Of a stretch of DNA of 64,000 bases, positions 3,151 through 56,049 are shown in pieces (the stretch's first letter is position 1; each line of letters opens with the position of its first letter). Location: contig OZ245046.1 in the NCBI GenBank assembly GCA_965224245.1, forward strand, positions 6,368,001-6,432,000. Direction: 5' to 3'. This DNA is from Candidatus Eiseniibacteriota bacterium. Its GTDB lineage: Bacteria > Eisenbacteria > RBG-16-71-46 > CAZAMP01. The notes under the pieces are model-generated. The model was not told where the DNA came from and made no database searches. It saw only the letters and a list, made by a program, of their open reading frames with translations. The translations under genes were made by a program, and so were the position numbers.

Positions 3151-3452
3151 ACGCCGAGCCGGCTGGAGGTGAGCCGGGCCACGAGCCGGCCCCGGCTCGT
3201 TCCGGCATCCGGGTCAGTCGCACGGCCCCTGGTAGGGACGTGGCGGACCAGGAACTGCCCGGGCCGACTTCGGGTGGTGGGTCTCCGGCGTGGTGACCGG
3301 TCGTGCCCAGGGGCCAGAAAACGGACCCCCACCGGGCGCTGGCCATACGGGAAGTCCACGATGGTCATGTCGCCGACGGTCGGTATCCTGATCGATTGTC
3401 TCGTTCCGATCGGGGCGAGACGGCTGCACACACCCAACAGGTAGGCCGAGCC

Positions 3453-12285: not shown

Positions 12286-13221
12286 ATGAGCGCCCGTACG
12301 CCCGATTCCTGGCCCACCTTGCCACCGCTGGAGCAGTGGCAGGAGACTTTCGAGACGCTTCACCGATGGTCGCAGATCGTCGGCAAGATTCGCCTGGCCC
12401 ATACCCCGTGGACGAATCACTCGTGGCACGTCCCGCTGTATCTCACGACGCACGGCCTGACCACGTCGACGATCTACCACGGCAGACGCGCCTTCGAGAT
12501 CCACATGGATCTGCAGGAGCACTGCCTGCGCATCACCACGGCAGACGGTCCGAAGCGGAGCTTCCGTCTTCAGGGCACCTCGGTCGCCGACTTCTACGGC
12601 AAGACGATGGGTGCGCTGGCCGACCTCGGGATCGAGACGAGGATCTGGACGACACCGGTCGAGATCCCGGGTGACGTCGAGCGCTTTCCCGACGACACGC
12701 GGGCGGGCTACGACGTGGAAGTGGTCACGGCACTGTGGCAGGCGCTCCTGGACATCCAGCGGGTGTTCATGCAGTTTCGTGCGCGGTTCATCGGCAAGGT
12801 CAGTCCCGTGCACGTCTTCTGGGGCGCGTTCGACCTGGCCGTGACGCGCTTCTCCGGGCGGACCGCGCCGGAGCACCCCGGAGGTGCCCCGAACTGCCCG
12901 GACTGGGTGATGCGTGAGGCCTACTCGCACGAGGTGTCGAGCGCCGGCTTCTGGACAGGAGCGGGCTATGGGCAGCCGGCCTTCTACTCCTATGCCTATC
13001 CCGGGCCCGAGGGTTTCGCGGAGGCCCCGGTAAGGCCCGACGCCGCGCACTGGTTCGCCGACCTCGGGGAGTTCGTGCTGCCATACGAGGCGGTGCGCAC
13101 GGCCTCGGATCCCGAGGCGACCCTCATGGAGTTCCTGCAGTCGACCTATGAGGCCGCAGCCGATCGTGCGCGCTGGGATCGGGCCGCGCTCGAGCGTGAC
13201 GAGTTCGGGCCGGGCGACTGA
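12286..13221 (+). CDS. DUF5996 family protein
   Basis: W..T..TLH.W.QIVGKIRL...NHSWHVPLY, F.GK.SPVH.FWG.FDLAVTRFSGR.AP.HPGG, EAYSHEVSSAGFW, FLQSTYEAAA. Confidence 0.9.
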   Translation: MSARTPDSWPTLPPLEQWQETFETLHRWSQIVGKIRLAHTPWTNHSWHVPLYLTTHGLTTSTIYHGRRAFEIHMDLQEHCLRITTADGPKRSFRLQGTSVADFYGKTMGALADLGIETRIWTTPVEIPGDVERFPDDTRAGYDVEVVTALWQALLDIQRVFMQFRARFIGKVSPVHVFWGAFDLAVTRFSGRTAPEHPGGAPNCPDWVMREAYSHEVSSAGFWTGAGYGQPAFYSYAYPGPEGFAEAPVRPDAAHWFADLGEFVLPYEAVRTASDPEATLMEFLQSTYEAAADRARWDRAALERDEFGPGD

Positions 13222-13222
13222 C

Positions 13223-14224
13223 ATGCCCGTCGGCTGGCGTCCACGGACGAGAATGGTCGCGGCAGTGCTGCTGATGGCACTCGGAGTGTCGCTTCAGGCG
13301 TGCAGGCCCCGCGCGCCGGAGCAATGGTACGAGATCGTGTCGCAGTCGCCGGGGCCCGAGGTCACCGACGCGACGATGCGCCGGCGGATCGAGGAGAGCG
13401 GGCACCCGTGGAAGGTGCGCGATCGAGCGACCGGAATAGAGTTGGTTCTGGTGATGCCAGGCGAGTTCCTGATGGGATCGCCGGGAACGGAACCGGGCCG
13501 AAACGCGGATGAGGGACCCCAGCACCGCGTGCGGTTGACCACGGCGTTCTACCTGGGAGTGACGGAGGTGACCCAGGCGCAATGGCGGCGCATGATGGGG
13601 TCGAGCCAGGGCTTCTTCAGGGGCGACAGCAAGCCCGCCGACGGGTCCTGGCACGATCTGCGAGCCTTCCTCTCCAGGGCGAACGCAGACATCCCGGAAG
13701 GTGTGGAGCCACTTCGTGCGCCGACCGAGGCGGAATGGGAGTATGCGTGCCGGGCAGGAACGACCGGGCCATTCAGCTTCGAGGGGCCGATCAGTCATGC
13801 CCGGGTGAACTTCAATGACGGCGACGTCGAGAGCGCGTATGTGGACGGCAAGCTGAAGGTCGTGAACGGCAGGCTGGAGGTGGAATGGAAGACGCCCCCC
13901 TCACCCGAGTGTCGCATGACGACCGCGCCCGCTGGATCGCTGCCTCCGAATGCCTGGGGGTTGCACGAGATGCACGGCAACGTGTCGGAGTGGACCGCTG
14001 ACGCGTATGTCCCGGATGCCTACTCGGGCCGAGGTCCGGTGGCGGTGGACCCGATCCAGCGAGCCGTCGGGGACGAGGCTCGCACCCTGCGGGGCGGAGA
14101 CTGGTACAAGAGTGCGCGGTACAGCCGCTCCGCCGTACGCGACGCCGGGGGCACGCACGTCCGTAGCAACCGAATCGGCTTTCGCGTGGCGCGCACGCTC
14201 ACGTCGCGCGATGCGTCAGGGTAA
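13223..14224 (+). CDS. Formylglycine-generating enzyme/SUMF1 (CLec-fold) family lipoprotein
   Basis: LQAC lipobox; GEFLMGS, EGPQHRV, TEVTQAQW, PTEAEWEYACRAG, PNAWGLHEMHGNVSEW, RGGDW, IGFRVAR. Confidence 0.9.
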   Translation: MPVGWRPRTRMVAAVLLMALGVSLQACRPRAPEQWYEIVSQSPGPEVTDATMRRRIEESGHPWKVRDRATGIELVLVMPGEFLMGSPGTEPGRNADEGPQHRVRLTTAFYLGVTEVTQAQWRRMMGSSQGFFRGDSKPADGSWHDLRAFLSRANADIPEGVEPLRAPTEAEWEYACRAGTTGPFSFEGPISHARVNFNDGDVESAYVDGKLKVVNGRLEVEWKTPPSPECRMTTAPAGSLPPNAWGLHEMHGNVSEWTADAYVPDAYSGRGPVAVDPIQRAVGDEARTLRGGDWYKSARYSRSAVRDAGGTHVRSNRIGFRVARTLTSRDASG

Positions 14225-14246: not shown

Positions 14247-14591
14247 GTGTACATTCATCACATCACGACCTCGACGGAGGCCGAGGAAGCGGCGCGCACC
14301 GGACGCTACGTGCCCGAAGCGTTCGACGCTGACGGCTTCGTCCACTGTTCGACGCGCGACCAGGTGATCCGGGTCGCGAACTTCCTGTTCGCCGGCCGGA
14401 AGGATCTCGTCCTGTTGACGATCGATCGGGCGGCACTGACGAGTGAGGTTCGCGAGGAGAACTGCGAAGGCGGCGATGAGCTCTTCCCGCACGTCTACGG
14501 ACCGCTGCCATGGTCGGCCATCGTATCGGTCCACCCGTTTCCGTGCGGCGACGATGGAACGTTCACGCTGCCTATAGGGCTCGATGGCTGA
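14247..14591 (+). CDS. DUF952 family protein
   Basis: GTG start after AGGAG; IHHIT...GFVHCST..QV..VAN..F.G..DLVLL.ID...FPHVYGPL. Confidence 0.9.
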   Translation: MYIHHITTSTEAEEAARTGRYVPEAFDADGFVHCSTRDQVIRVANFLFAGRKDLVLLTIDRAALTSEVREENCEGGDELFPHVYGPLPWSAIVSVHPFPCGDDGTFTLPIGLDG

Positions 14592-14731
14592 CTCTCGTCG
14601 CCCGGGCCGATCATCCATCGACGTCACGGCATCGAGACCTCGAGCCGCCGGTCGTCGTGAACCCCTACCCCACCGAGCACGATCGACGTCCCCAGCTCGC
14701 GAGACGTGACCCCGCGCTCGGGCAGGAGGAG

Positions 14732-17296
14732 TCAGCGGATCGTGACCGTTCCCCCCTGGGGGTCGATGGTGACCCGTCGCGTGATGGAGACCGGCCCTGC
14801 CTCGTCGTAGTCCCCCGCCTCCACGGAGATGGTGGTGCCGTTGCCGGCCACGTCCAACGCGTCGGACACGTTGTCGAAGGGCGCCGACGCGGTGCCGTCT
14901 CCGGAGCCGGCGTAGTCCCCGTCCACGTAGACATACGGAAGCGGCTGGCTCACGAACATGCCGCGACCGTAGGTGGCCGCCACCAGCATCCCCGGGTCGT
15001 ACCAGAAGAGGTCGGACACCTCGACGTTCGCGGGTCCGTCGTGACCGGCGAACTCGGGCGTCACGTTCCAGTTCTCGCCCCCGTCCTCGGACGCGAAGAT
15101 GCCGAGGTCGGTTCCCACGTACACCCACGACGGCTGGTCGGGGTGGAGTGTGATCGTGTTCACGTGGATGACCGGTAGCGCGGTGGGCCAGAGTCCGGTG
15201 CGGTCCTCCCAGTGGAGGCCGGCGTCGGTGGTTCGCCACACCTGCTCGCCGTGGTATCCGCCGAACGTGACCCACACCTCCGACGGATTGGTGGGGTGGA
15301 TGGCGATGTCGGTGACGTACCGATCCGGCAACGAGGGATTGGTGTTGTCCCAGCGGATCCAGGTGCTCCCGCCGTTCGCGGTGGCCATCACCCGTCCGTT
15401 GTCGTAGCCGATCCACACCCGGCTGCCATCCGAAGGCGCGTAGGTCACCGCGCTGACGAGCTCGGAGTCGGGATAGACCGCGGTGAGCGGAGCCCACGAC
15501 GATCCCGCGGTCTGGGTCCGCCACAGGGACAGGCAGCCCACCATGAGCTCGTCGGAATCGTCTGGGTTCATGTCGAAGGGGGCGATGAACAGCGCGGTGC
15601 TGTCTCCATTCGCGTGACCGATCCCGGACCAGATGTTGGAGTACGTGTCCCCGCCGTTGGTGCTCTTCTCGAGCGTGGCGTAGACGTACTCCGCGTAGAT
15701 GATGTTGGGGTTGTCGGGGTTGACCACGCAGTCGCCCCCATCCCCGGTCTCCGCCTGGTACCAGTCGTTGAATCCGTCAAGAGGGCTGTAGCGGAGGTGG
15801 TCGTTGTCCTGCGTTCCCCCCACGATGACCGACCCATCCGGGCTCGCCGCGCCGTGGTAGAACTGGGTCACACCCAGATTCGAGGCCAGGTTCTCCCAGT
15901 TCGATGTCTGGGTCGTGGTCCACGGATCCGCGTTCCGCTGGATGCCGCCGTCGTTGCCGAAGTACACGGTGGTGCTGGTCGTGCCGTCGTACCCGATGGC
16001 CGGCACGATCGCGTGCTGATCGGCGTGGGCGGAGTTCCCGACGTGATACTGAGTCCAGTTGCTGATCCGGGTGATGTTCAGGCCGCCGTCCACCGAGCGC
16101 CAGAGATCGATTCCGCCGAGCAGGATCCGGCTCGAGTTCGACGGATCCACCCAGATGATGTTGTCGTAATTTCCCTGGCCGTTGAAGAGATCCGTGCCGG
16201 AGTACTGGAAGGCCCAGGACCAGCCCGCGTCGAGCGACTGGTAGATGCGGCCGGAGCCATCGTTGACCAGCGCGTAGGCGGTCCCGTCGGCGTGCATCGT
16301 GAACTCCACCCGCCCCTCGATGGCGGGGAGCTTGCCGAGGCCGCCCACCGAGAGGCTGTCCCAGGTCGCGCCGCCGTTCACGCTGCGGTAGCCGCCGCCG
16401 AAGGTTCCCACCAGCATGATGGACGGATTGCCGGGCTGGAGCTCGACATCGGTGACCGATCTCGTCGACGAGAAGATGGGAGTCCAGGACTGGCCCTGGT
16501 CGAACGACTCGCGCACCTCGAGGTGGGGCGTGCCGAGTCCGATCAGCACCCGCCCCTCGTCGGTGGGGTGGGCCACCACCCGGTTCACGTGCTCGAAGCC
16601 GAGTGTGGATGTGAGCTGCGTGTAGGGCCCGGCCGTCCCCGTGGTGGAGAGGAACACGCCGTTCCCGGGCGGCGCGCGCAGCGTGTATCCCTCGCCGGTG
16701 GCAACGTAGATCACGTTCGGATCCACGGCATCCCGCGCGAGCGAGGTCACGTTCAGGTTCGCCATGAAGTCGTCGATGGGGTACCAGCTTCCGCCGTGAT
16801 CGTCGGTCTCCCAGAGCCCTCCGGAGACCCCGCCCACCAGAATCTTCCCGTCGTCCGACCAGTCGGGGAGGATGGCCCGGATCCGTCCGCCGATGTTGCC
16901 CGGTCCGATCCATTCCCAGCTCCAGATGCCGGCATCCCGGTACTCGACACCTCGTGAACGCACCGTCTCCCTGGCCTCGATGAGAGCGTTGCGGGGGATC
17001 GTCCCGTCCGCATCGGTCCGCATCCGGCGTCGCCACTCGAGGGCCGCGTCCGCGTGGGTCGCGGAGACCGGCTCCCCGCGCCGGATCCGCGCCGCCCGCT
17101 CGCGGTGACGGGCCTCCTTCTCCGCGATGCTCCGGGCCATGCTCTCGGCGTTCACCATCAGGCCGGGGACCCGGCCCTCGTCGTCCGATGCGGGGCCGGT
17201 GTCGGTGGGCCGCGGCACCACGAGCACGATCGCGGCGAGCATCGCGACGCCGACGAGGATCGCCGACCCGGCCCGTGTCGTCGTCGTCCCCCTCAT
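14732..17296 (-). CDS. Secreted BNR/Asp-box (VPS10/glycosyl-hydrolase-like) double beta-propeller with C-terminal DUF1565-like module
   Basis: W.WIGPGNIGGRIRA, many S.DGG.(S/T)W Asp-boxes, HADQH, GNDGG, GGTQDN, GDGG, ATYGRG; start overlaps the upstream stop by 4 nt. Confidence 0.9.
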   Translation of the reverse strand: MRGTTTTRAGSAILVGVAMLAAIVLVVPRPTDTGPASDDEGRVPGLMVNAESMARSIAEKEARHRERAARIRRGEPVSATHADAALEWRRRMRTDADGTIPRNALIEARETVRSRGVEYRDAGIWSWEWIGPGNIGGRIRAILPDWSDDGKILVGGVSGGLWETDDHGGSWYPIDDFMANLNVTSLARDAVDPNVIYVATGEGYTLRAPPGNGVFLSTTGTAGPYTQLTSTLGFEHVNRVVAHPTDEGRVLIGLGTPHLEVRESFDQGQSWTPIFSSTRSVTDVELQPGNPSIMLVGTFGGGYRSVNGGATWDSLSVGGLGKLPAIEGRVEFTMHADGTAYALVNDGSGRIYQSLDAGWSWAFQYSGTDLFNGQGNYDNIIWVDPSNSSRILLGGIDLWRSVDGGLNITRISNWTQYHVGNSAHADQHAIVPAIGYDGTTSTTVYFGNDGGIQRNADPWTTTQTSNWENLASNLGVTQFYHGAASPDGSVIVGGTQDNDHLRYSPLDGFNDWYQAETGDGGDCVVNPDNPNIIYAEYVYATLEKSTNGGDTYSNIWSGIGHANGDSTALFIAPFDMNPDDSDELMVGCLSLWRTQTAGSSWAPLTAVYPDSELVSAVTYAPSDGSRVWIGYDNGRVMATANGGSTWIRWDNTNPSLPDRYVTDIAIHPTNPSEVWVTFGGYHGEQVWRTTDAGLHWEDRTGLWPTALPVIHVNTITLHPDQPSWVYVGTDLGIFASEDGGENWNVTPEFAGHDGPANVEVSDLFWYDPGMLVAATYGRGMFVSQPLPYVYVDGDYAGSGDGTASAPFDNVSDALDVAGNGTTISVEAGDYDEAGPVSITRRVTIDPQGGTVTIR

Positions 17297-19209
17297 TGCA
17301 AGTTCACCAGGACGAGCACGAGCCCGGTTCCGGTCTCCAGCCCGGTCATGGCCTTGCCGATGATCGCCCCGTGCGAGCGGTCATGGTCGACCGCGGCCAT
17401 GGCATGTCCCGGGAGGTCGGAGGTCGTGAGAAGGTCGCCCGGCACGATCGGGTGCGGGCCGGCGGTGGCCTTCACGTAGACGCGCCCGGTGAGCGCGACG
17501 TCCTGCCCCTCGCCGAGGCGGTCGCGCTGTCCCAGCGTGAGCCCCGCGTTGACACCGCCCGCTCCCGAGATCACGCCGGCCACGCGGCGGTCGTAGGCGA
17601 TCGCGCTCTCCACGAGCGAGCCCGGGGTACGGGGATCGATCACCACCACGGTGCCCGGGTCGAGAGGTGCGGGCGCCTCGATGGGGAACGGCTCGGCGAG
17701 ATCGGCGCCGCCGGTGATGTGGAGAACGTCGGTGGTGGTCTCGCCGCTGGTGCCGTTGAGCTGCACCCGCACGTTGCCCGCGGCGTCGAACGCCTGCACG
17801 AGACCGACGTCGGAATCGACGATCACCGATGGGATCCCGCTGGTCCGGAGAAGGTTGATGTCCCCCTTGGTGAAGATCCCCTGGGAGGCGCCCCCGGTGG
17901 GCTCGATGGCGGTGACGTGCATCGTCTGGGTCGCCGCATCCAGACGAATGCCGGGGGACCCGCCTCCATTTGCGTACAGCTCGATCCTGCCCTGCGCGTT
18001 CGGATCGGCCGTCTCGCCGAGCTGGAGCAGCCCCGTGTTGTCGAGGTATGCCCCCACGTACCCGTCGTCGTTGGTGACCTCGAGATCCCCGTTCATGAGG
18101 AGGGAGCGCTCGTCGAGGCCCAGGATCTCTAGCGGCGCATCGGGCGTCGAGGTCTGGATGCCGAGCCGCCAGCCCACGTTGAGCCCGCCCACGCCGTTGA
18201 TCTGTACGGCGCCCGCGTCGGTGTTGATGGTGCGCCCGAGGCCGGGGCCGCCCTGGTCGTAGGCCTCGTCGAGCGTGTTACCCGCCGAAGGTCCGCCGGT
18301 GTTGTCGGTCTCGAAGACGATGGAGCGAACCACCACCGGGGAGCTGGAAGCGTCGGCCCGCACCTTGACGTCGATCGTACCGGCCGATGCGAGGGATCCC
18401 GTCTCCACGATGTATGTCCACGGGCGAATGCCGCCGGCCCGGACATCGATGGTGGAGATCACACTGCCGTCGACCTCCACGGTCGCCGTGCCCGTTCCTC
18501 CCGCCGGCGGCACGCCACCGCCGTTGAACGACAGGATGATCCGCGAGTCTCGACCGCTCCAGCTCGCCGTCTCGGATGCGAAGTCGTAGTAGAAGTGACG
18601 AAGGGTGACGTCGGTCTCGCTGTCGACGATCTCGCTCAGGGCGCCGGACGTCAGCCCGACGACGCCGCCCTGGAGTCCCAGCGGCCCACTCATGTCGTCG
18701 CCGGCGCGCTCGACGTAGCCGTCCGCCCCCACGCCGCCGAGGTTGTCGGCGTCGAAGGCGCGGAACGCGTAGGGGCTGCTCTGTAACGGCGTTCGCGGGG
18801 TCAGCTCGGGCGCGCCGTCCACGGAGATGCCGAGGTAGAGCGTCGCGCCACTGAAGATCGAGGCCGGGATGGGGTTGATCGAGCCGAGCTCGATCGAGAA
18901 CACGCCCTGGCCCACACCGACGGCGGCGTGTGACTCCATCCACACGGCGGTGCCACCTCCAGAATCGGTGTAGATGCCGACGTCGAGCCCGACGGTGCCA
19001 TCCACGGGCGTTCCGAGGTCGTCGGTCAGGTAGCCCTGAAACGCGAGCACGCTCGGGACGACACGTGCGCCGGAGATCTCACCGGAGGTCGGAAGCTCGA
19101 AGCTCGGCGCACCCGGTGCGAGGTTGTCGTGATCGGAGGCAGTCGTCGGAGCCGGTAGACCGGACGAGACCAGCACGACCGCGGTGAGGACGAGGCGGAG
19201 ACTGTTCAT
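17293..19209 (-). CDS. Secreted tail-fibre-like protein with C-terminal peptidase-G2/intramolecular-chaperone-like domain
   Basis: Signal peptide; N-domain FQGYLTD..G.PVDG...GVFSIELG...LYLGISVDG.PELTPR...PYA; LGIQTSTP repeat; C-domain ADLAEPF...PGTVVVID...VAGVISG...VALTGRVYVK...GDLLTTS..PGHAM...IIGKAM; no Ig-CTD. Confidence 0.85.
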   Translation of the reverse strand: MNSLRLVLTAVVLVSSGLPAPTTASDHDNLAPGAPSFELPTSGEISGARVVPSVLAFQGYLTDDLGTPVDGTVGLDVGIYTDSGGGTAVWMESHAAVGVGQGVFSIELGSINPIPASIFSGATLYLGISVDGAPELTPRTPLQSSPYAFRAFDADNLGGVGADGYVERAGDDMSGPLGLQGGVVGLTSGALSEIVDSETDVTLRHFYYDFASETASWSGRDSRIILSFNGGGVPPAGGTGTATVEVDGSVISTIDVRAGGIRPWTYIVETGSLASAGTIDVKVRADASSSPVVVRSIVFETDNTGGPSAGNTLDEAYDQGGPGLGRTINTDAGAVQINGVGGLNVGWRLGIQTSTPDAPLEILGLDERSLLMNGDLEVTNDDGYVGAYLDNTGLLQLGETADPNAQGRIELYANGGGSPGIRLDAATQTMHVTAIEPTGGASQGIFTKGDINLLRTSGIPSVIVDSDVGLVQAFDAAGNVRVQLNGTSGETTTDVLHITGGADLAEPFPIEAPAPLDPGTVVVIDPRTPGSLVESAIAYDRRVAGVISGAGGVNAGLTLGQRDRLGEGQDVALTGRVYVKATAGPHPIVPGDLLTTSDLPGHAMAAVDHDRSHGAIIGKAMTGLETGTGLVLVLVNLQ

Positions 19210-19355
19210 TGGGTCGGTCCCTTTCGGTGCACGAGATCGATGATCGAGGATCCCGATCACGTGATGAATGCCGGTTCGTGTCTATGCGATTTCAGGAGGA
19301 TCCGTTCCCGGGGTTCCGGCGCAGCGCGCCACGCTCTGGAATGGCATGCCACGCA

Positions 19356-19916
19356 TCACCACACGCGAAGCAGCTTGCGCCGGTCCGTGAAGCTTCCGAT
19401 CTGTGCGGACAGGTAGTAGACGCCCGGCCGCACCGGGCGATCACGATCGTCGCGACCATCCCACGCGACCTCGTACCAGCCCGGAGCGTAGGCCCGATCG
19501 ACGAGCTCGCGGACCTGTCGTCCGGCCACGTCGTGCACGACGAGCCGGACCCTCGCTTGCTCCGACACCGCGAAGGGAACCTGCGTGATGGCACGGAACG
19601 GGTTCGGGTGCGCGCTACGCATCGCGTGCACGCCGGGGAGCGGTGTCTCCGGCGTGTCGGCATCGAGGAGACCCGGATAGGGAACCCAGAATCCCTGGAC
19701 GAGCTGCAAGCCGCCGCCCGAGGCAAACCCCACGGGACCGGCCTCGGCCAGGGTCGCCTGGAGTCGGACTCCACCGCCGGTGGCGTCGGTGGCGCCTCCG
19801 GAGAACGCGACGCGACCGAGCGTATAGGCACCCGCAAAGGATGCGGTGAGCGTCGCAAGCGCCAGGAGCAGCGCCGTTCGCGTCACGACAGAGCGATGAC
19901 TGGAGAAACGCGGCAA
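19356..19916 (-). CDS. Small secreted protein: ~50-aa Gly-rich beta domain + Ig-CTD (candidate fibre adaptor)
   Basis: TTG start 9 nt after GGAGG (alternative GTG 19886); signal peptide ending FAGA; YTLGRVAFSGG...GGGLQLVQGFW; CTD PNPF...VHDVAGRQVREL...PGVYY. Confidence 0.85.
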   Translation of the reverse strand: MPRFSSHRSVVTRTALLLALATLTASFAGAYTLGRVAFSGGATDATGGGVRLQATLAEAGPVGFASGGGLQLVQGFWVPYPGLLDADTPETPLPGVHAMRSAHPNPFRAITQVPFAVSEQARVRLVVHDVAGRQVRELVDRAYAPGWYEVAWDGRDDRDRPVRPGVYYLSAQIGSFTDRRKLLRVW

Positions 19917-20108
19917 GATCCATGACCTCCGTTCTGGGCGTGCGGCACGTCGGCCACGGACTGTCCCGATCAGGGTCTCCATTATGGCGCACAATCGGGT
20001 TGGCTGCCTAGTCGCTTGCGCCGCTCCCTACCGCGGTGTCCAGGAATCCGATCGCAATGTCCGAAAACACGATCGCGCCGCCAAGCTGGAGGTCGCCTCG
20101 CGTCGGTC

Positions 20109-22253
20109 TCACTCGAGTCGGACCACCTCGCGCACGGTCACGTCGTTGCCCGCGACCAGCTCCACGAAGTAGTGACCGGGCGCCAGCTCGGCCGCGTCCC
20201 AGGCGACCTGCCGTTCGTGCCCGGTTCCCCTGCCCTCGAACAGTGTAGCGATGCGGCGGCCGGTCACATCGTAGACGGTCATGCGGATCTCCACGTCCGC
20301 GCGGGATTGGAATCGGACCGTGGTGTCGGTTCGGAACGGGCTCGGCGTGGCGATCAGCAGGGGGCTTCCCGGCGCAGCTCCCGGTACGCCGAGCGCGGGG
20401 GTTGCTTCGCCACGCACTCGGACCGTGGTCTGGGGAATCGGAACGTGGTTCTCCGGCGGACCCGGGTCGTACTGCTCGTCAGCCTCCGGTCCCGCGCCGA
20501 ACCCGAACATCAGGCGTCCTGCCCCCGACGCGCTGCCACGACCCAGCAGCGCGATCCGCGGACCTTCGGGAGGGATCGCGGGCGGTATCTCGAGGTCGAG
20601 TCCGCTCAGGTCGAAGCTCAGCAGCGTGGGGCTCGTGAGTACGTCCGTGACGCGCACCACGCCGTGGCCTCGCACGATCGTGAGTCGATCCGTCACGTCC
20701 ACGTGGAAGAGCTTGCCAGGACTGGAGGGGCTCGAAACGTCGCCGCTGACCGGCACCCCAGGTGGCCACGCCATCAGATCGAACTCCATCATCTCGAAGC
20801 ACGGCGTCGGCCCCCGTCCCTGATCGCAGGGACCCAGACCGGTCGCCACGACCTCGAAACGGGTCAGTACCGTCGACTCCGTCACCTGGTCCAGCAGATG
20901 CACCACCAGGCTCACGTCGTCGGTATCCGTGTCGTGGTAGGACGAAACCCCGATCTCGGACTCGCCGCGCGATAGAGGCCCGAGTCCGTTTCGGAGGATG
21001 TCGGTCTGCGCGACGCAAAGCCGCGACACGTCCCCCTCTTCGGTCCCGACGAGCAGTTCCACGTCCTCGCCGTCGGCCAGCGGCCACCGGACGGCCAGAG
21101 CCGAGGCGTTGCTGCCGGTGCTGTCGATCCCGGTGGCGGAGACGATCGCGCCCGCCTCTGCATCGATCACGTGAACCCGGCCGACCTGATCGGGCGCGTA
21201 GACGGCGCCGGCGACCGGATCGAACGCCAGCAAGTAGGGTCCCCCCACGCCGTCCGGGACGACCGCGGTCCACTCCCAGGTGGCCGACGCTCCGTCGTCA
21301 CGGGCCAGGTGCACCCTCCCGAGGAAATCGCGGACGATGATCGCGTCGTGATACGGCGGGACGAACGGCGCGATCACGTCTGCACGTATCGGAGCCCCGC
21401 TGGGCACGGAAACCGACCAGCGAGGCGAGCCGTCCGCCGGGTTCCAGGCTGAGAGCTGGGTACCCCCTGCGGTGTACAGAACGTCGTTGCGGATGACCGC
21501 CGGTCCCCAGAGCCTGCCCGCGTCCACCGCCCAGGTCGACGTGGCCGTGATCAGGTCGAGTGCAAACAGGCTGGCGCTCGGCGTGATCGAGTTGTCCGCT
21601 CCCACGAACAGCAGATCGAGGAAGGGATCAATGCTCAACCCCCGCACCGCCCCCAGGATCTCGGATGCATTCGACTCGAACTGGAAGCGGGGCGTCGCCG
21701 TCTCCACCTCGATCCCGAGAACGAAGTTGGGCGGACCGGAGCATTCCTGTGGGATCGACGAGGCCACGAACACGAGACCGTCAGCGTACGCTGTCCGAAA
21801 CGAGTCCGACGCCCGGTCATACATGTGGACCACCGGAGTCGCTTCCATCCGGTCCTCGGGACACGAAGCGAGGTTGTGCGTCCACAGCGGATCGGCGAGC
21901 AAGCTGCCGTCGGGCTCGATGACGGACTCACTGACGTACGCCGTTCCCCACACCGTGAAGGCGTGGGACGACCCGTCGTCCCAGGGAACGAGCACGCCCT
22001 CGCGTCCCCCGATGGTCGACGAGTTGTCGATGTGGCTCAACGTGCTCGGATGTCGGGTGTGCAGAAACATCTCGGTCCCGACGAGGAGGAAGTCGAACCC
22101 ATCGGCTTCCAGGATGACGCCGGACGGAGTGAAGTCCAGATCCGCATGGGCGAGTGGGTTCTGGTCGATACAATCTCCCGCCCGGACCATCTGAATGGCC
22201 GAAGCGAGTAGGAGGGAAGTCACCGTAGCCGTCAGCGTCGATGCGACACGCAT
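20109..22253 (-). CDS. Secreted PQQ-like beta-propeller protein with Ig-CTD
   Basis: Signal peptide; LFALD, LSAWNPADGSPRWS, VHVIDAEAG repeats; CTD PSPF...VYDVTGRRIATL...PGHYFV. Confidence 0.85.
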   Translation of the reverse strand: MRVASTLTATVTSLLLASAIQMVRAGDCIDQNPLAHADLDFTPSGVILEADGFDFLLVGTEMFLHTRHPSTLSHIDNSSTIGGREGVLVPWDDGSSHAFTVWGTAYVSESVIEPDGSLLADPLWTHNLASCPEDRMEATPVVHMYDRASDSFRTAYADGLVFVASSIPQECSGPPNFVLGIEVETATPRFQFESNASEILGAVRGLSIDPFLDLLFVGADNSITPSASLFALDLITATSTWAVDAGRLWGPAVIRNDVLYTAGGTQLSAWNPADGSPRWSVSVPSGAPIRADVIAPFVPPYHDAIIVRDFLGRVHLARDDGASATWEWTAVVPDGVGGPYLLAFDPVAGAVYAPDQVGRVHVIDAEAGAIVSATGIDSTGSNASALAVRWPLADGEDVELLVGTEEGDVSRLCVAQTDILRNGLGPLSRGESEIGVSSYHDTDTDDVSLVVHLLDQVTESTVLTRFEVVATGLGPCDQGRGPTPCFEMMEFDLMAWPPGVPVSGDVSSPSSPGKLFHVDVTDRLTIVRGHGVVRVTDVLTSPTLLSFDLSGLDLEIPPAIPPEGPRIALLGRGSASGAGRLMFGFGAGPEADEQYDPGPPENHVPIPQTTVRVRGEATPALGVPGAAPGSPLLIATPSPFRTDTTVRFQSRADVEIRMTVYDVTGRRIATLFEGRGTGHERQVAWDAAELAPGHYFVELVAGNDVTVREVVRLE

Positions 22254-24668: not shown

Positions 24669-24917
24669 CTGCGCTCGCGGAAGTCATCGCGTCCTCGAGA
24701 GCGACGTCGCCCGTCGTGAGCGGAGCGGTGGGTTGCTGACCAGGAGACGACGTGAAGGCGCCGTTCATGGACTCGGTCGAGCTCGTTCCTGCGAGTTAGT
24801 GAAATCACTACGCATTCACCTCGTTCGGTTTCTACCTACTGCCAAGCCGGTATTCACCAACGATAATTGTGGAGCAGTCGTACAGAAGCAACGGTGGTCC
24901 GTCCGAGGGGAGTCGTC

Positions 24918-27086
24918 ATGGGAGCATCGAGATGGATGAGTGCCGTCCTGTGGGTGGCAGTGTGCGTCACCGCCTCGCACGGGGAGACCGGCTACAGCGA
25001 GAACATGGCGCTCGTGGGGAGATGGGGGCGCGGACCGTGCGGGGACGGAGATGTGAACGGAACCGTCGCATACTTCGGCGACGGGGCTTACCTCAGGATC
25101 TACGACTTCGCGGATCCCGCATCGCCGGTGCTCCTGGGAAGCCATCTTGCACCGGGCCCGATCCAGGGCATCGACGTCGAGGGCGGTTACGCCTACCTCG
25201 CCGACTGGCAAGACGGATTGCGTATCGTGGATGTCTCGAATCCCGCCACGCCTTCGGAGATCGGGTATCTCGATACACCGGGAGACGCGAGGGGCGTCGC
25301 CGTCGTCGGGACGCTTGCATACCTGGCTGACGGCCTGAGCGGACTTCACATCATCGATGTCTCCAATCCGGCCGCTCCGTCCGAACGCAGCGTATTCGAC
25401 ACCGCTGGGCAGGCCTACGATGTTGCGATCAGCGGCTCCTACGCCTACGTGGCCGACACCTCCGGCGGCCTACGGATCCTCGACGTGTCCAACCCCGACG
25501 CCCCTACCGAGGAGGGCTCCCTCGCAACGGATGACACGACCTACGACGTGGTCGTCAGTGGCGCCTATGCCTACGTCGCCGACCGATTCGGTGGCCTTCG
25601 TGTCGTCGACGTGTCCATGCCCGCAGCGCCGGCGGAGGTCGGTTCTCTGTACACGGGGTACGCCATCTCGGTCGAGATGGGTGGCGGCTTCGTCTACACG
25701 TCCGGCCAGGTCTTTCTCGACGTGGTCGACGTCGGTGATCCGACCAGTCCGACGACGGTGGGGTCGTACGATCCCACCGGTCTTCCGCTTCACGGAAAGA
25801 TCGTCTACGACGCGGGCGTTGCATACGTGGCGGACGTCCGGGCGGGCTTTCGGGCGATCGACGTCGCCGTTCCGACGGAACCGACGGATGTGGGTCACGT
25901 CGACGGTCTGGACATCACGTACGGTGCCGATGCACAGGAGGGGTACGTCTACGTCGCGAACTACGTCGGCGGACTTCGTGTGCTGGACGTTTCCGATCCG
26001 TCTGCACCCGAGGAAGTGGGTTCCTACCGGCCGGGGTTCGACGTGAGGGATGTCCGGGTGGTCGGTGACTACGCCTACCTGGCGTGTGCGGCCCGTGGGC
26101 TGCGCATCGTGGACGTGTCGACTCCGACCACGCCCACCGAGGTCGGGGCAGAAGACCTTCCCACGTCAGCAGACGCCATCGACGTGTCCGGCGGTTACGC
26201 ATATGTGACGGGTCAGCGCAGCTCGGGCGAGGAGCTCTACGTCCTCGACGTGAGCAATCCCGCGGCGCCGATCAGAGCCGACTCCCTGGACCTGCCGGGG
26301 ACCACCCCGCGCGACGTGGTGGTTCATGGCACCCACGCGTACGTTGCGAGCTTCGGGGAGGGGCTCCGCATCGTCGATGTCTCCAACCCGGCATCGATCG
26401 CCGAAGTCGGCGCCGAGACTTCACGTATCGCGATCGGAGTCGCGATCCAGGGTGACTACGCGTACGTGGGCGCCGGTGGCAACACGATGAGCATCATCGA
26501 TGTGTCCAATCCAGCGGCACCGGTCGAGGTCGGCACCGCAGGCATGCTCGGGGCCGCCTGGGGAACGGCGGTGAGTGGCGACTACGCGTATGTGGCGAAC
26601 GAGGAGTACGGCGTTCGCGTGTTCGACGTGACGGATGTAACCAGCCCGGTCGAGGTGGGCAGGTATGACACCGGGGACGAGGCGCGTTGGCTCGTCATGC
26701 TGGGAGACCTCGTCGTCGCAGTCGACTGGCAGGACGGTATCTGGATTCTCGAGATGGATCCGATCGCCGCGGTCGATGGTGACGTGCCAGTACCTGGCTT
26801 CGTGCTGTACCCGTGCGCACCCAATCCGTTCACCTCGTCGACCACGATCACGTACGCACTCGGAACACCGTCCACTGTGACGCTGCGCATCTACGACGCA
26901 AGAGGACGTCTGGTTCGTGTGCTACGAGACGGCGCCACGGATGGTTCGGGTCCACACTCGGTCACGTGGGATGGTGTCGATCGCCGGGGAGTGCCGGTGG
27001 CGCCCGGCGTCTACTTCTATCACCTGGAGGCCGGCTCGTTCACGGAGACGAGGAGCATGGAGCTGCTGAGGTCGACGCCAGAATAG
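24918..27086 (+). CDS. Secreted LVIVD-repeat protein with Ig-CTD
   Basis: About 14 repeats of YAYxAD...GLRIVDVSNP..P.EVG; CTD PNPF...IYDARGRLVRVL...PGVYFY. Confidence 0.92.
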   Translation: MGASRWMSAVLWVAVCVTASHGETGYSENMALVGRWGRGPCGDGDVNGTVAYFGDGAYLRIYDFADPASPVLLGSHLAPGPIQGIDVEGGYAYLADWQDGLRIVDVSNPATPSEIGYLDTPGDARGVAVVGTLAYLADGLSGLHIIDVSNPAAPSERSVFDTAGQAYDVAISGSYAYVADTSGGLRILDVSNPDAPTEEGSLATDDTTYDVVVSGAYAYVADRFGGLRVVDVSMPAAPAEVGSLYTGYAISVEMGGGFVYTSGQVFLDVVDVGDPTSPTTVGSYDPTGLPLHGKIVYDAGVAYVADVRAGFRAIDVAVPTEPTDVGHVDGLDITYGADAQEGYVYVANYVGGLRVLDVSDPSAPEEVGSYRPGFDVRDVRVVGDYAYLACAARGLRIVDVSTPTTPTEVGAEDLPTSADAIDVSGGYAYVTGQRSSGEELYVLDVSNPAAPIRADSLDLPGTTPRDVVVHGTHAYVASFGEGLRIVDVSNPASIAEVGAETSRIAIGVAIQGDYAYVGAGGNTMSIIDVSNPAAPVEVGTAGMLGAAWGTAVSGDYAYVANEEYGVRVFDVTDVTSPVEVGRYDTGDEARWLVMLGDLVVAVDWQDGIWILEMDPIAAVDGDVPVPGFVLYPCAPNPFTSSTTITYALGTPSTVTLRIYDARGRLVRVLRDGATDGSGPHSVTWDGVDRRGVPVAPGVYFYHLEAGSFTETRSMELLRSTPE

Positions 27087-27175
27087 CGACGTCGTCGTCC
27101 TGTTTGGCTACAGAGTGCCGGCCGGAGCAGGTGCCTGTCCGTCCGTGCCGAAAACCTCGACGAAAGGTGCGGACG

Positions 27176-36600: not shown

Positions 36601-37107
36601 CAGTGTTCCGCCATCGATCTGGGTGATGCGGCCGCCGAACTCCTGATGACTCACGCGGACCGCCCCGCCGGCTTCCCAGATCCCGAGCGCGGCCGCCGCC
36701 GTACCAGCCCCATCGAGGCCGTAGCCGGAACCGCCGCCAGGCCACACCTCGTCGGTGCTGATCGTACGGGCCGCGTTGAGATTCGTGGTCTCGAACCAGA
36801 CCGGCTGGCCGCGATCGTCGATGTACGCGAGCATGACGCCGGGCTCGTCCAGCAGTCGTGAGCGTGGGTCCTCACGATCGAGGATTCGCTGATAGACCGC
36901 AGGTTGGTGGTCACTCAGCCACTGATTGAATGTCGTCGCCAGCTCGAGGAGACGCGCCTTTTGTGTCGAGGACGGCTCCCACGCCTGCGCGCTGCATGGC
37001 TGCGGTGACGTGAGCCAGGCGGTGAGGACACCCAGAGCCAGCCACCGAGCTGCGCGAGGCGTACGGGTACGGATTCGGGCATTGCGAGTCACAGCTACCG
37101 AAGGCAT
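33691..37107 (-). CDS. S8 subtilase with HYR/Ig-like repeats and Ig-CTD
   Basis: GIWEAGG, HATHVAGT, SNHSYG, KSAGND, KPDIVANG, SGTSMSTP; LVNDLDL; HYR-like DETPPVVECP; LWPPNHK domain; CTD PNPFNP. Confidence 0.93.
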   Translation of the reverse strand: MPSVAVTRNARIRTRTPRAARWLALGVLTAWLTSPQPCSAQAWEPSSTQKARLLELATTFNQWLSDHQPAVYQRILDREDPRSRLLDEPGVMLAYIDDRGQPVWFETTNLNAARTISTDEVWPGGGSGYGLDGAGTAAAALGIWEAGGAVRVSHQEFGGRITQIDGGTLSDHATHVAGTMLAAGMDAAAQGMSFAASMNAYDAAGDTGEMTAAAAAGLLISNHSYGRICGWRVDDGNWYGDTSIDQNEDWKFGFYNAQAQQWDQLAVAAPNYLIFKSAGNDRNDFAPPPGTAHMHGSDGATFTDTHDSDGDPLGYDTIPTYGTAKNIMTVGAVDDIPGGYTGAGDVVQSAFSGWGPADDGRIKPDIVANGVSLYSTGADSDTDYYTTSGTSMSTPNASGSANLLREQFQDLNGVLPRSATLKALIIHTADEAGPADGPDYMNGWGLMNTESAADVIAAGQFDDRGIVEDDLADTATDSWTLNVNSVGDARVTIVWTDPAGTPPADALDPTDVMLVNDLDLRITHVDSGTTYRPWVLNPASPANAATTGDNVLDNVEQVHIANAALGQYTISVTHKGSLVDAPQQYSLIYSGMSRNAAPVAMCQDVTVPADDACLAEVAPEDVDDGSFDPDGDPITLSLSPEGPYGLGETEVTLTVSDDKGASGTCTATITVEDETPPVVECPPDVVVECSVAGGVPIDDPQLTDFFDGFSASDNCDSDLTIVDNAPPLFEGPCSASGGVTVVTWTATDDAGNSSQCSATVTVVDTVAPTFDVLLPSRDVLWPPNHKMVDISMEIEVSDVCDDDVIVTLDSITSSEPDDGQGDGSTEDDIQDATYGTDDRAFALRAERSGLSDEGRTYTITYTVADCSGNSTTESVEVLVPHDQGAAVARGVSGLSEDGTTVDETAAFVSFVIPSIPFENPPAETVPGGARLIDRLAFDATRVLAARARLGNTAGVAAPVRTALVDIDGDHNEDLLIVFDATHVGALAQTTTEHGSVGLQFRMRDTGQDFLVTDVFQLGAPVGGALSQFIRSSDEPTEEIPQNVESAPANERLRISPNPFNPHTAIAFDLARPDDVRLCVYNPRGERVATLVDGSLAAGRYEISWTGRDDRGAQVVSGFYIVRLQVGSVVQTAKIALLK

Positions 37108-54188: not shown

Positions 54189-54722
54189 GTGAACCATCCA
54201 CTGCTCGCCGTCGTCGTGCTCGTAGCCTCCGCACCCGCTGACGCCGGTGCGCTCGAGCTGGTCGCCGACGCCATCGCACCGGTGGCGGGCGGAGGCGCGA
54301 TCGGCGATCGCTCGGAGATCGGCGCCGCCGGGCTCCCGCTCATGGGCCCGGGACAGGGTGGCTCGCTCGTCCTTCTATCCGGCCATCTCGCAGCCTACCC
54401 GCCACCGAGCGCGCTGGACATCACCACCGATCCGATGTCGTCCGTGCCCGTGCTCACCGAGCTGCGCGTGTGCAACGCGAACCCGGTGCGTGCAAGCGCT
54501 CATCTCGAAGTGCGAATCGCCGGTGACACGGACGCGTCCGTGTCGCTCGAGGTGTTCGACGTGCGCGGGCGCCGCGTGGCGGTGCTCGTCGACGGCACCT
54601 TGCCGCCCGGATCGCATGATGTTCGGTGGGACGCCTCCTCGACCGTATCGGCCGGCGTCTACTTCCTCAGACTGCTGGCAGGTGACCTCGTGGATCGGAG
54701 ACGACTGGTCGTCGCCGAATGA
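54189..54722 (+). CDS. Small secreted protein: ~50-aa Gly-rich beta domain + Ig-CTD (candidate fibre adaptor)
   Basis: GTG after CAGGAGG; signal peptide; LELVADAIAPVAGGG...GQGGSLVLLSGHL; CTD ANPV...VFDVRGRRVAVL...AGVYFLRL. Confidence 0.85.
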   Translation: MNHPLLAVVVLVASAPADAGALELVADAIAPVAGGGAIGDRSEIGAAGLPLMGPGQGGSLVLLSGHLAAYPPPSALDITTDPMSSVPVLTELRVCNANPVRASAHLEVRIAGDTDASVSLEVFDVRGRRVAVLVDGTLPPGSHDVRWDASSTVSAGVYFLRLLAGDLVDRRRLVVAE

Positions 54723-54756: not shown

Positions 54757-56049
54757 ATGCTACGTGATGCCGTACGCGTTCGAAGGACGCTCGCGTCGCT
54801 GATCCTGGGCGTGCTCGTCAGTCTATCGGGCCACGCCGCTGGTCCCGACCGCATCAACTACCAGGGATCCCTGAGCGACAGCGGGACGCCCGTGGACGGG
54901 ATCGTCGACATCTCCGTCGCCCTCTACGCCGCCGGCATCGGCGGCGAGGCGCTCTGGTTGGAGGCGCACGCCGACGTCGTGGTCACCGCGGGTGTCTTCC
55001 ACCTGGTGCTCGGCTCGCTCAGTCCCCTGGACGCCTCGCTCTTCGACGGAGTGGAGCGCTGGCTCGAGCTGACGGTCGATGGAGAGACCATCACGCCCCG
55101 GCGACAGTTCCTGAACGCACCCTACGCCATGCGCGCGTCGGTGGCCGACGTCGCGCTGTCCGGTGGGGACGGCCCGTGGGAGGTCTCCGGCGACGACATG
55201 ACGTCGGGACTCGCCGGCAACGTCGGGATCGGCGTGGAGACCCCGCTCGAGAAGCTTCACGTGCGAGGCAGCGCCGCACTCGACCTGGGCAGCCTCTACC
55301 TGCGCGACTCCGCCGATCGCACCACCATCGAGCTCGATGCCGAGGAGGGGAGCGCCCTCGGCGACATCACGTTCTACGACACCGACGGCTCCGCGAAGAT
55401 CCAGATCGATGCCTATCACGGCACCGGCGGCGATGCGCGCATCACGATGGACGGCGCCCTTCACCTCGCGAGCGACGATCTCTATCAGCAGCCGACCACC
55501 GGCCGGATCAACATCGAGGACCAGCTGATGTTCTTCCGCGACGGCGACGGCGACGGCGACTACGACTTCGACCTCTTCGGCGCTGGGAACCTCTATCTGG
55601 GCGCGGAGTCGTCGATCCACCTCATGATCAACGAGTACGCGGCCGAGCGCGGGCGCCTTCGGATCACCACCGACGGCAACGCCAACTACATCCAGTCCGG
55701 GACGAGCTACTCGGGAACCACGTCGAAGGACCTGCGCGTCGGACCCATGAACACGTCCCAGGCGTACCTCACCGTGCAGGCGGAGACGGGCAATGTCGGG
55801 ATCGGCACGCGAACGCCGACGAGCAAGCTACACGTCATCGGGAAAGCGACGTTCACCGGCGGCGTCGATCCGCCGTACATCTCGTTCAGCGCGGAGAGCC
55901 ACCGGACGATCCGCGAATACGCAAAGGACCTCGACCCGCACGAGGTCGTGATGCTGTTCTGGAACGACGACGCGAAGCGAATGCAGGTGTATGCGCGCGA
56001 CGATGACGCGTTCTACACGCTGGACGGGGAGCGGGTACCGGAGAGATAA
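54757..56049 (+). CDS. Secreted tail-fibre-like protein
   Basis: Signal peptide; N-domain PDRINYQGSLSD.GTPVDG...GVFHLVLG...WLELTVDGETITPR...PYA; GNVGIG.TP..KLHV repeats; no Ig-CTD. Confidence 0.85.
   Translation: MLRDAVRVRRTLASLILGVLVSLSGHAAGPDRINYQGSLSDSGTPVDGIVDISVALYAAGIGGEALWLEAHADVVVTAGVFHLVLGSLSPLDASLFDGVERWLELTVDGETITPRRQFLNAPYAMRASVADVALSGGDGPWEVSGDDMTSGLAGNVGIGVETPLEKLHVRGSAALDLGSLYLRDSADRTTIELDAEEGSALGDITFYDTDGSAKIQIDAYHGTGGDARITMDGALHLASDDLYQQPTTGRINIEDQLMFFRDGDGDGDYDFDLFGAGNLYLGAESSIHLMINEYAAERGRLRITTDGNANYIQSGTSYSGTTSKDLRVGPMNTSQAYLTVQAETGNVGIGTRTPTSKLHVIGKATFTGGVDPPYISFSAESHRTIREYAKDLDPHEVVMLFWNDDAKRMQVYARDDDAFYTLDGERVPER

Follow-up and report, generated by a model that had tools for sequence, protein, structure and literature searches.

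The window analysed here, a stretch of 64,000 nucleotides (nt) from a Candidatus Eiseniibacteriota bacterium (contig OZ245046.1, positions 6,368,001 to 6,432,000 of the forward strand), contains two gene pairs in which a small protein that ends in a sorting domain (C-terminal domain, CTD) of T9SS type (T9SS standing for type IX secretion system), referred to here as the adaptor, is encoded upstream of a fibre protein that has no such domain. The two-gene module is real and conserved: a short Gly-rich domain of the small protein, named GFW for its terminal G-F-W, is encoded beside genes of the same fibre family in other genomes and across phyla. As judged from their sequences, the fibres are relatives of the MAT fibres of Bdellovibrio and belong to a non-phage family of surface fibres, and it is somewhat probable that the small GFW protein is their surface anchor or adaptor. 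The MAT-type fibre is already known; the new element is its conserved GFW partner, none having been described in the literature found. The two pairs consist of the following features (positions are those of the window):

19981..20010, minus strand: promoter-like site upstream of adaptor 1 (sigma-70-like consensus match only)
19356..19916, minus strand: adaptor 1 gene, 186 amino acids (aa), with signal peptide, GFW domain, linker and CTD
19677..19832, minus strand: GFW domain of adaptor 1, about 52 aa, Gly-rich, ending in G-F-W (aligns with the GFW family)
19359..19610, minus strand: T9SS-type CTD of adaptor 1 (FlgD_ig, TIGR04183)
17293..19209, minus strand: fibre 1 gene, 638 aa, ATG start, MAT-like, without CTD (identical to P0001)
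18715..19071, minus strand: N-domain of fibre 1, residues 47-165, MAT_N-like (NF053851, AlphaFold2)
17848..18714, minus strand: middle part and shaft repeats of fibre 1 (profile match to MAT structures)
17296..17847, minus strand: C-terminal domain of fibre 1, about 184 aa (family profile, AlphaFold2, fold matches)
54189..54722, plus strand: adaptor 2 gene, 177 aa, with signal peptide, degenerate GFW domain and CTD
54246-54398, plus strand: degenerate GFW domain of adaptor 2
54480-54719, plus strand: CTD of adaptor 2
54757..56049, plus strand: fibre 2 gene, 430 aa, with N-domain, shaft repeats and a different C-terminus, without CTD
54829-55185, plus strand: N-domain of fibre 2

Both pairs are co-oriented, with the small gene upstream of the fibre gene and an intergenic gap of 146 nt in the first pair and of 34 nt in the second. 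Adaptor 1 starts at the TTG at 19916, which is preceded by GGAGG 9 nt upstream and gives the 186 aa of the protein-database entry (P0031); adaptor 2 starts at a GTG with AGGAGG 5 nt upstream, and fibre 2 at an ATG with GGAG 8 nt upstream. The N-termini of all four proteins show a basic and then a hydrophobic stretch, read by eye as a Sec signal peptide, and the third-position GC of the pair genes (about 0.77-0.86) is that of coding sequence in the window, whose overall GC content is 66%. The promoter-like site is the single sigma-70-like match across positions 14400-20300 (mean of 0.2 in shuffled sequence), and consensus matching found no terminator-like site between it and position 14400.

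A CTD scoring above one curated cut-off is present in each adaptor. Adaptor 1 matches Pfam FlgD_ig (PF13860) with 31.4 bits (cut-off 27) and TIGR04183 with only 15.9-16.5 bits (cut-off 23), the matches extending over residues 142-198 and 129-209, respectively, of a 212-aa open reading frame (ORF), whereas adaptor 2 reaches 23.8-24.9 bits with TIGR04183 and only 18.7 with PF13860. Outside the CTD no library match was obtained for either adaptor, and the N-terminal Gly-rich part of about 50 aa has no match in Pfam. The two adaptors are 36% identical, adaptor 2 being a degenerate member of the family in which GFW reads GHL. Among 95 candidates of a word-index search with the adaptor N-part, only the protein itself was recovered; PHROGs gave no match to the adaptors better than E 0.027, and the best scores of an ESM Atlas look-up of the GFW part (0.84, 0.83 and 0.78) stayed under the lead threshold of 0.9. 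The existence of two co-oriented pairs of a CTD-bearing small protein and a CTD-less fibre, which an earlier note on this DNA had pointed out, is confirmed by the ORFs, Pfam and NCBIfam. The same note took the second pair for a recurrence of the first, and this is right for the adaptor and for the fibre N-domain and wrong for the fibre C-terminus, which in fibre 2 is different and shorter and does not contain the C-domain of fibre 1.

Because 15 ORFs of the 64-kb window, the two adaptors included, carry a CTD, a CTD-bearing neighbour of any gene is unsurprising there, and the significance of the pairs rests on the adjacency of GFW and fibre genes in other genomes. Loci were collected by running a degenerate DNA pattern for E-L-T-P-R-x6-P-Y-A-[FL] against genome contigs, which gave at least 128 stretches in at least 127 loci. 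Flanks were taken for about 80 of these motif loci, nearly all of which hold true N-domains, and adjacency was evaluated in 69 non-redundant loci of at least 3 kb with a fibre N-domain match; the overlapping loci L009, L040, L041, L060 and L062 were dropped, L017 and L047 (from one metagenome-assembled genome) were both kept, and taxon labels are those of the record titles. When the adaptor N-parts were compared with the six-frame ORFs of the loci by phmmer, the top matches lay directly beside fibre genes (L050, L076, L021). A hidden Markov model (HMM) iterated on the locus ORFs without regard to their position converged on 36 ORFs, defining a Gly-rich GFW domain of about 45-50 aa with a T-[VI]-G-Q core and the terminal G-F-W, for which Pfam has no model.

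The 69 loci contain 32 GFW ORFs, spread over 31 loci and without exception on the same strand as the fibre gene; 25 (in 24 loci) are within 200 nt of the fibre gene and 31 within 2 kb. When GFW ORFs were placed at random in those loci (2000 trials), 0.9 were adjacent on average and never more than 6. The proposed adjacency is consequently upheld across genomes, and with it the earlier view of a non-phage two-gene surface-fibre module, which proves to be conserved across phyla. Beyond these loci, the GFW profile matched 5210 of 1.84 billion cluster representatives (50% identity clusters) at E≤1e-3, 31 of them at E≤1e-10; among the best 150 of the 5210, 112 are proteins of at most 200 aa with the domain directly after the signal peptide, and 13 have at least 1300 aa. 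Tandem GFW domains, two or three per protein and placed before the anchor, were observed in P0151, P0153, P0165 and P0196, and P0151, with three copies in a single chain, might point to 3:3 pairing with a trimeric fibre.

The GFW domain is joined to different anchoring modules in different lineages. In FCB-type (Fibrobacteres-Chlorobi-Bacteroidetes) and unclassified genomes, the proteins beside fibres consist of the GFW domain, a short linker and a T9SS CTD, and Por_Secre_tail or FlgD_ig ends were found on the small fibre-adjacent GFW proteins of L011, L014 (Eisenbacteria), L017, L021 (two), L023, L047, L050 (Fibrobacteraceae) and L076. In Phycisphaerae (L022 and L068), by comparison, GFW is combined with Dockerin_1, the gene being 1.8 and 3.3 kb from the fibre gene, and in Anaerolineaceae (L065) with a short tail that has a hydrophobic L-P-L motif at its end. 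The cluster representatives show the same variety: TIGR04183 is present in 18 and a GC-type dockerin in 8 of 80 small GFW representatives, a YLP-like C-terminal motif was detected by regular expression in 22 of 112, and others have a transmembrane segment with a basic tail. Fibre ORFs that are complete at their 3′ end have no CTD (0 of 86 by a local CTD HMM, which in the window detects each of the 15 CTD ORFs). The small protein had been supposed to supply a sorting or anchoring signal, and it does look like such a supplier, given that most classifiable GFW proteins carry a surface anchor and the fibres no CTD. The occurrence of GFW proteins with anchors foreign to the T9SS, such as the YLP-type tails of Anaerolineaceae and the dockerins of Phycisphaerae, suggests that the conserved role is anchoring rather than export.

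A further form is found in Saprospiraceae/Chitinophagales, where a gene for a giant protein with a GFW domain at its start lies directly downstream of one to three short fibre genes in tandem (300-615 aa). The cultured Phaeodactylibacter luteus KCTC 42180 (L027) carries the giant form. Ten of the 13 representatives of at least 1300 aa were examined and all have the GFW domain near the N-terminus. The seven full-length giants (2282-2505 aa) combine it with a C-terminal Por_Secre_tail or FlgD_ig domain in every case, and the three shorter ones (1373-1580 aa), which are probably truncated, have no CTD. GhpA of Aureispira, also a giant T9SS substrate, has its sorting domain at the membrane end and its N-terminus distal, according to the available text of the study (bioRxiv 10.1101/2024.01.29.577165); if the giants are oriented likewise, they would carry their GFW domain at the end of a long stalk. 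Three tandem fibre genes precede the giant gene in L039, and two in each of L008, L042 and L074, which hints at several alternative tips for one stalk.

The class of GFW partner is also reflected in the fibre N-domain. The residue before its invariant Q-G is I or V in all 19 fibres beside giant GFW proteins and Y or F in 11 of 12 fibres beside small ones, the GFW sequence of the exception, L058, being of giant type and interrupted by an early stop. Saprospiraceae contain both classes (L011 versus L004, L025 and others). This covariation fits a specific pairing, although two separately inherited cassettes could also produce it.

With respect to the fibres themselves, neither has a Pfam match or a CTD, and they share only the N-domain (45% identity over 139 aa; the fibre N-domain HMM recognises fibre 2 at E 3e-33). 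NF053851 (Bdello_MAT_N) matches this domain in fibre 1 at E 3e-7 with 30.4 bits, and in fibre 2 at E 0.0072. As NF053851 is a 'subfamily_domain' model of Bdellovibrio, the fact that fibre 1 stays below its curated cut-off (30.4 versus 60 bits) excludes the Bdellovibrio subfamily and not the wider MAT family; the model is matched at E≤1e-3 by 96 of 109 N-domain sequences of the family (best 8.6e-14, the window copies included). A profile of relatives with fibre 1 as its first row matched the MAT structures of the PDB (bd2133 8OND at 3.6e-11, 8OJN at 2.3e-4, 8OL4 at 2.6e-3 and 8ON4 at 0.075), and these matches run through shaft repeats of the V-G-I-G-T..P..L type. In the AlphaFold2 monomer of fibre 1, the predicted local confidence (pLDDT) is above 90 for residues 50-145 and low to medium in the middle part and shaft. 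The C-terminal parts vary among N-domain homologues and include Peptidase_S74, YadA head and collagen; Peptidase_S74 (PF13884) is present in 6 of 68 relatives that share the N- or the C-domain, and has no match in fibres 1 and 2.

MAT fibres were described in 2024 as prey-recognition surface adhesins of Bdellovibrio (Caulton et al. 2024, PMC10769870). [quoted passage not shown] The N-domain, the shaft and the swappable tips of the window fibres match those of MAT fibres, so the fibre as such belongs to a kind already described. The description 'tail-fibre-like' of the earlier note captured the fibre and missed this published family, to whose model 96 of the 109 N-domains correspond. How MAT fibres are held on the cell is stated to be unknown in the same paper (PMC10769870), whose available portion names neither an anchor nor a neighbouring small gene, and the accessible part of a 2026 review gives no answer on MAT fibre attachment. 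A literature search found no described adaptor or anchor of such fibres, most subscription papers being outside its reach.

Some side observations concern the same proteins. A 677-aa protein encoded outside the window (P0002) is 53% identical to the N-domain of fibre 1, and the genome probably holds at least a third fibre. A PHROG tail-fibre repeat matches fibre 2 at 2e-7, in the repeat motif only. A resemblance of fibre 1 to aegerolysin/ostreolysin (phmmer against PDB sequences, E 0.11-0.21, residues about 202-262) was taken as chance.

We propose that each pair forms a two-part surface-fibre display unit. The fibre would be composed of a Sec signal peptide, a conserved N-domain of about 110 aa, a repeat shaft, presumed to be trimeric and surface exposed, and a variable C-terminal tip, and its N-domain would be bound by the GFW domain (about 50 aa) of the adaptor. 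The CTD would route the adaptor through the T9SS, and the adaptor would then be fixed on the outer face of the outer membrane. With the adaptor anchored and bound to the N-domain, the fibre would stand with its N-terminus proximal and its tip outward. Physical binding with its stoichiometry, T9SS dependence and covalent surface attachment are what we infer here. It had been suggested that the adaptor is needed because a C-terminal chaperone of the fibre is cleaved off, but this explanation is not borne out in that form, as fibre 2 and many relatives lack that domain and have the same N-domain and partner. Since these fibres without the C-domain keep N-domain and partner, a more general arrangement, with the N-terminus as the proximal, anchored end and the C-terminus as the free tip, appears preferable.

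Whether the two parts would meet before or after export is a separate matter, and we consider it doubtful that the fibre passes the outer membrane along with the adaptor, piggy-back, rather than by another route followed by docking. A broader reading, held tentatively and more likely wrong than right, joins both aspects: the GFW domain would be a general socket for the MAT-type N-terminal plug, fused to the anchor of each lineage (T9SS CTD, dockerin, YLP-type tail, transmembrane tail, the far end of a giant T9SS adhesin and, perhaps, PamT), and in diderms with a T9SS the fibre would be exported bound to the tagged adaptor.

The interaction was addressed by a complex prediction in which the N-domain of fibre 1 (residues 47-165, 109 aligned rows) and the GFW part of adaptor 1 (60 residues, 111 rows) were present in three copies each. 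The score was 0.37 (runs of 0.22, 0.39 and 0.37) and was rated 'weak support'; the best of three controls, two with an unrelated protein in place of the GFW partner and one with the fibre N-domain replaced, was 0.00. The runs agree in at least 47% of contacts, and no interface was reported. In the calibration of the tool, 116 of 157 solved complexes and 2 of 215 mismatched pairs attained the mark, and scores up to 0.60 comprised 18 of the 157 solved complexes together with both passing mismatches. The binding of the fibre N-domain by the adaptor, as earlier proposed, is thus favoured over the controls, although with a score rated only as weak.

Several results weigh against an anchoring or adaptor role, or against parts of it. 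By the calibration just given, predictions scoring 0.37 are wrong in the majority of cases unless binding was likely beforehand, and the GFW partner has a pLDDT of 31-35 in the complex runs, its fold being uncertain. Alone, the GFW part of adaptor 1 was predicted by AlphaFold2 as four short strands in two beta-hairpins with a mean pLDDT of 57; such a low-confidence model is compatible with a module that folds on its partner, and proves nothing. Within the window, the HMM trained on the loci finds adaptor 1 at only E 0.0011 and misses adaptor 2. Of the 69 loci, 38 have no GFW gene at up to about 6 kb from the fibre, some of them being cut by contig ends, and all loci of Myxococcota, Kapaibacteria/Ignavibacteriota, Kiritimatiellae and Verrucomicrobiota are among these; the partner is consequently not universal, or it is encoded elsewhere. 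Gene order is variable as well, GFW being upstream of the fibre in the window pairs, L017, L021 (two tandem pairs) and L050, and downstream in L011, L014, L065, L076 and all giant cases. A natural fusion of GFW and fibre was absent from the 150 GFW representatives and the 150 fibre-family proteins inspected, and, the loci having been selected by their fibre, the adjacency counts apply to GFW genes near fibres and not to GFW genes in general. Regarding export, no core T9SS gene was identified within the 64-kb window, which is the only part of the genome that was read. Additionally, we know of no precedent for hitch-hiking through the T9SS, for which a literature search gave none, nor of an experimental demonstration that a CTD of the FlgD_ig type acts as a T9SS signal outside Bacteroidota.

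Some of these observations might be accommodated if the GFW protein bound the fibre as an assembly factor or as a structural base subunit, the fibre being held by something else. This is on the whole improbable, although it would suit a GFW gene placed on either side of the fibre gene, a GFW part that has no confident fold alone, as expected of a partner-folded piece, and the existence of proteins with two or three tandem GFW copies. Phage fibre chaperones are, moreover, typically encoded directly beside the fibre gene. However, a chaperone needs no surface-sorting signal, and the classifiable GFW proteins carry a T9SS CTD, a dockerin, a YLP-type tail or a transmembrane tail; in the seven full-length giants, furthermore, GFW is located at the far end of a T9SS substrate of more than 2,000 aa.

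It is also conceivable that the two proteins make no contact and are neighbours only through co-regulated or co-transferred cassettes of surface proteins, the GFW protein having a function of its own. The abundance of CTD proteins in the window, where such neighbours are expected, the weak complex prediction and the many fibre loci without a GFW neighbour are all in line with this explanation, to which we assign a low probability. In fact, the adjacency is specific to GFW, always co-oriented and mostly within 200 nt, and it is maintained across distant phyla and anchor types. Besides, the partner class covaries with the N-domain class of the fibre inside one bacterial family, and all three controls of the complex prediction scored 0.00.

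A third explanation, which is very unlikely, regards GFW as a pilin-like strand-exchange element and the fibre as the tip of a polymeric appendage, instead of a fibre attached singly to the membrane, as has been proposed for PamT in the Pam pilus of the Candidate Phyla Radiation (CPR). Positions of about 7-80 of the model NF058579 (CPR_pilus_PamT) are matched by 36 of 80 small GFW proteins (E 1e-2 to 3e-8), and, in the available text of the Pam study, a 'tail fibre-like protein' is consistently co-localised with the pam operon and PamT is modelled as the tip acceptor, that is, as a tip subunit (PMC13278184). Against this, the matches remain far under the cut-off (at most about 33 versus 240 bits) and include the signal peptide, the two window adaptors do not match NF058579 at E≤1, and Pfam scans showed no genes of pilins, ushers or chaperones beside the window pairs. 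Finally, that the pairs are the remnant of a prophage tail-fibre module (a fibre and an accessory gene) is scarcely credible and was rejected despite the 151 predicted viral structures that match the fibre 1 model (E≤1e-3) and the PHROG repeat in fibre 2, as scans of 37 window proteins turned up no phage family, a set of 50,697 phage records contained nothing similar to the fibre N- or C-domain (tblastn, E≤1e-3), both proteins have signal peptides, the partner ends in a bacterial secretion CTD and the fibre family has been shown to be a cellular surface adhesin in Bdellovibrio (PMC10769870, available text). The remark of the earlier note that no phage genes are nearby agrees with Pfam scans of 31 further window ORFs, which show none.

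The C-terminal domain of fibre 1 belongs to a large family of its own. Its conserved core of about 150 aa starts at an invariant G-G-x-D-L-A-E motif, and the invariant residues include the D and E of this motif, a K-A-M motif and a T-T-S-D stretch. At E≤1e-3, 4253 proteins among 8000 candidates scored are relatives; they have no Pfam annotation and are up to 66% identical over the last ~150 aa, across phyla, the named close relatives being records of Eisenbacteria, Zixibacteria and KSB1. When picked by the C-domain alone, the family mostly carries the MAT-type N-domain too (consensus of 65 sequences). AlphaFold2 models the domain (residues ~460-638) with a pLDDT of about 90, and it may be a folding or trimerisation module.

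In Foldseek searches, the fibre 1 model matched the pre-mature phi29 gp12 structure 3suc (E 2.5e-3, prob 1.0, root-mean-square deviation of 4.0 over 213 columns), and it matched phage minor-capsid and decoration proteins about as well, several of which were found in the PDB together with a cyanophage capsid chain (8hdt_G, 8.6e-4). The 151 matches in BFVD include tail fibres and intramolecular-chaperone proteins, and models of a 175-aa 'preneck appendage protein' match with TMt 0.64-0.67; as the fold-search outputs lack the matched residues, the part of the fibre 1 model that aligns to gp12 is not specified. At the sequence level, PF11962 (Peptidase_G2) does not match fibre 1 at E≤0.1 and matches 3 of 35 homologues weakly (0.0015-0.012, under the cut-off of 25 bits), just upstream of and into the C-domain. 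XM1_gp53_minor_capsid matches 3 of 35 homologues over the last ~130 aa, and the profile of the C-domain family found neither phi29 gp12 nor any other non-MAT structure among PDB sequences. The label 'peptidase-G2/chaperone-like' that had been given to this domain is therefore to be understood as a resemblance of fold, seen with 3suc and BFVD, and not as membership, as the link in sequence is thin and neither Pfam nor PDB sequences provide a match to it in fibre 1. The G-G-x-D-L-A-E motif at the start of the domain is a candidate self-cleavage site. The phi29 gp12 protein is reportedly cut just before an Asp. Its mature form, gp12*, ends at residue 691 in the available text of PMC6542822.

The pairs lie in an island of secreted proteins with FlgD_ig or Por_Secre_tail CTDs (window positions 613-58367). 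The following genes surround them:

3297-5756, plus strand: Propeptide_C25, Peptidase_C25 and FlgD_ig CTD protein, 819 aa
14732..17296, minus strand: Sortilin-Vps10/BNR-repeat protein, 854 aa (Pfam Sortilin-Vps10, 2.9e-14)
24867-27086 and 37738-41151: LVIVD-repeat propellers
26783-29992: DUF11 protein
33691-37167, minus strand: subtilase with HYR domain
49601-52324: FG-GAP proteins
57111-58367, minus strand: M28 peptidase

The C25 protein (3297-5756) weakly matches the PorU model, with 33 bits against a cut-off of 420, and may be either a divergent PorU or a protease of the gingipain kind. This C25/FlgD_ig protein and the total of 15 CTD proteins make a T9SS-type pathway plausible for the organism. 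A 358-aa protein with an FGE-sulfatase domain (13148-14224, plus strand, E 4.5e-39) is encoded convergently with the fibre 1 unit; the T9SS ring protein PorK/GldK has been reported to have a repurposed FGE fold (PMC12421860, available text). The ATG of the Sortilin-Vps10/BNR gene overlaps the stop of fibre 1 by 4 nt, so the two genes are likely co-transcribed, and the former is possibly a third gene of the fibre 1 unit. Its product has an N-terminal hydrophobic segment and a weak match to the F510_1955 glycosylhydrolase model (84.6 bits, cut-off 175). Directly upstream of adaptor 2, positions 52402-53934 (plus strand) encode a 510-aa protein with an N-terminal helix-turn-helix domain (HTH_20/ArsR-like) and a weak M29 aminopeptidase match.

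The GFW family is a testable candidate for the anchor of MAT fibres, whose relatives occur in many phyla, as the at least 128 stretches of the motif scan illustrate. If binding were confirmed, it would explain how a fibre whose C-terminus must stay free is displayed, would provide a role for the thousands of very small 'hypothetical' proteins in which hardly anything but a sorting signal is present, would provide a new docking pair usable for surface display and would raise the question of co-export through the T9SS. Export of the fibre on a tagged adaptor, if true, would be the first case of hitch-hiking to be described for the T9SS.

Among known systems, the fibres most resemble the MAT fibres of Bdellovibrio bacteriovorus, with which they share the signal peptide, the beta-rich N-domain, homologous shaft repeats and swappable tips, although they are shorter (638 and 430 aa versus 626-1959 aa in Table S1 of PMC10769870) and have neither an S74 domain nor the tips solved in the available part of that paper. 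PamT of the CPR Pam pilus is similar in that the first ~80 positions of its model correspond to the signal peptide and GFW domain of 36 of the 80 small GFW proteins. By contrast, PamT has a further Ig-like domain and no CTD, and the window adaptors do not match its model. In the phi29 gp12 pre-neck appendage (MEROPS/Pfam Peptidase_G2), the likeness consists of the fold matches of the fibre 1 model with 3suc and preneck appendage models and of the weak PF11962 matches of 3 of 35 homologues, whereas fibre 1 itself lacks a PF11962 match and a sequence-level match in the PDB. The giant T9SS filaments GhpA and SprB are comparable to the giant GFW proteins of Saprospiraceae, which have the CTD at the membrane end and an N-terminal module that would be distal. 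However, the latter have 2,300-2,500 aa with Laminin_G_3 and CarboxypepD_reg domains, in contrast to the 5,900 aa and Ig repeats of GhpA, and their distal module is the GFW domain; the window holds only the minimal form.

T9SS type A cargo of Bacteroidota has its C-terminal sorting domain cleaved and is fixed to the surface by the PorU/PorV/PorZ pathway. The adaptors resemble such cargo in ending with an Ig-like domain of about 75 aa that matches TIGR04183, PF18962 or PF13860, and differ from it in that their 'cargo' comprises only about 50 aa and a linker, without an enzyme or adhesin domain, and is proposed to hold a second, untagged protein. The genome of the window is, furthermore, not of the Bacteroidota type (66% GC, CTDs of the FlgD_ig type). 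The display logic proposed here is that of cohesin-dockerin display on anchoring scaffoldins, in which a surface-fixed module holds a separately secreted protein by means of a docking domain, and some GFW proteins themselves end in dockerins. Although there is no relation of sequence or fold between the two systems, a docking pair would be used in both, which in this case would consist of the GFW domain and the MAT-type N-domain.

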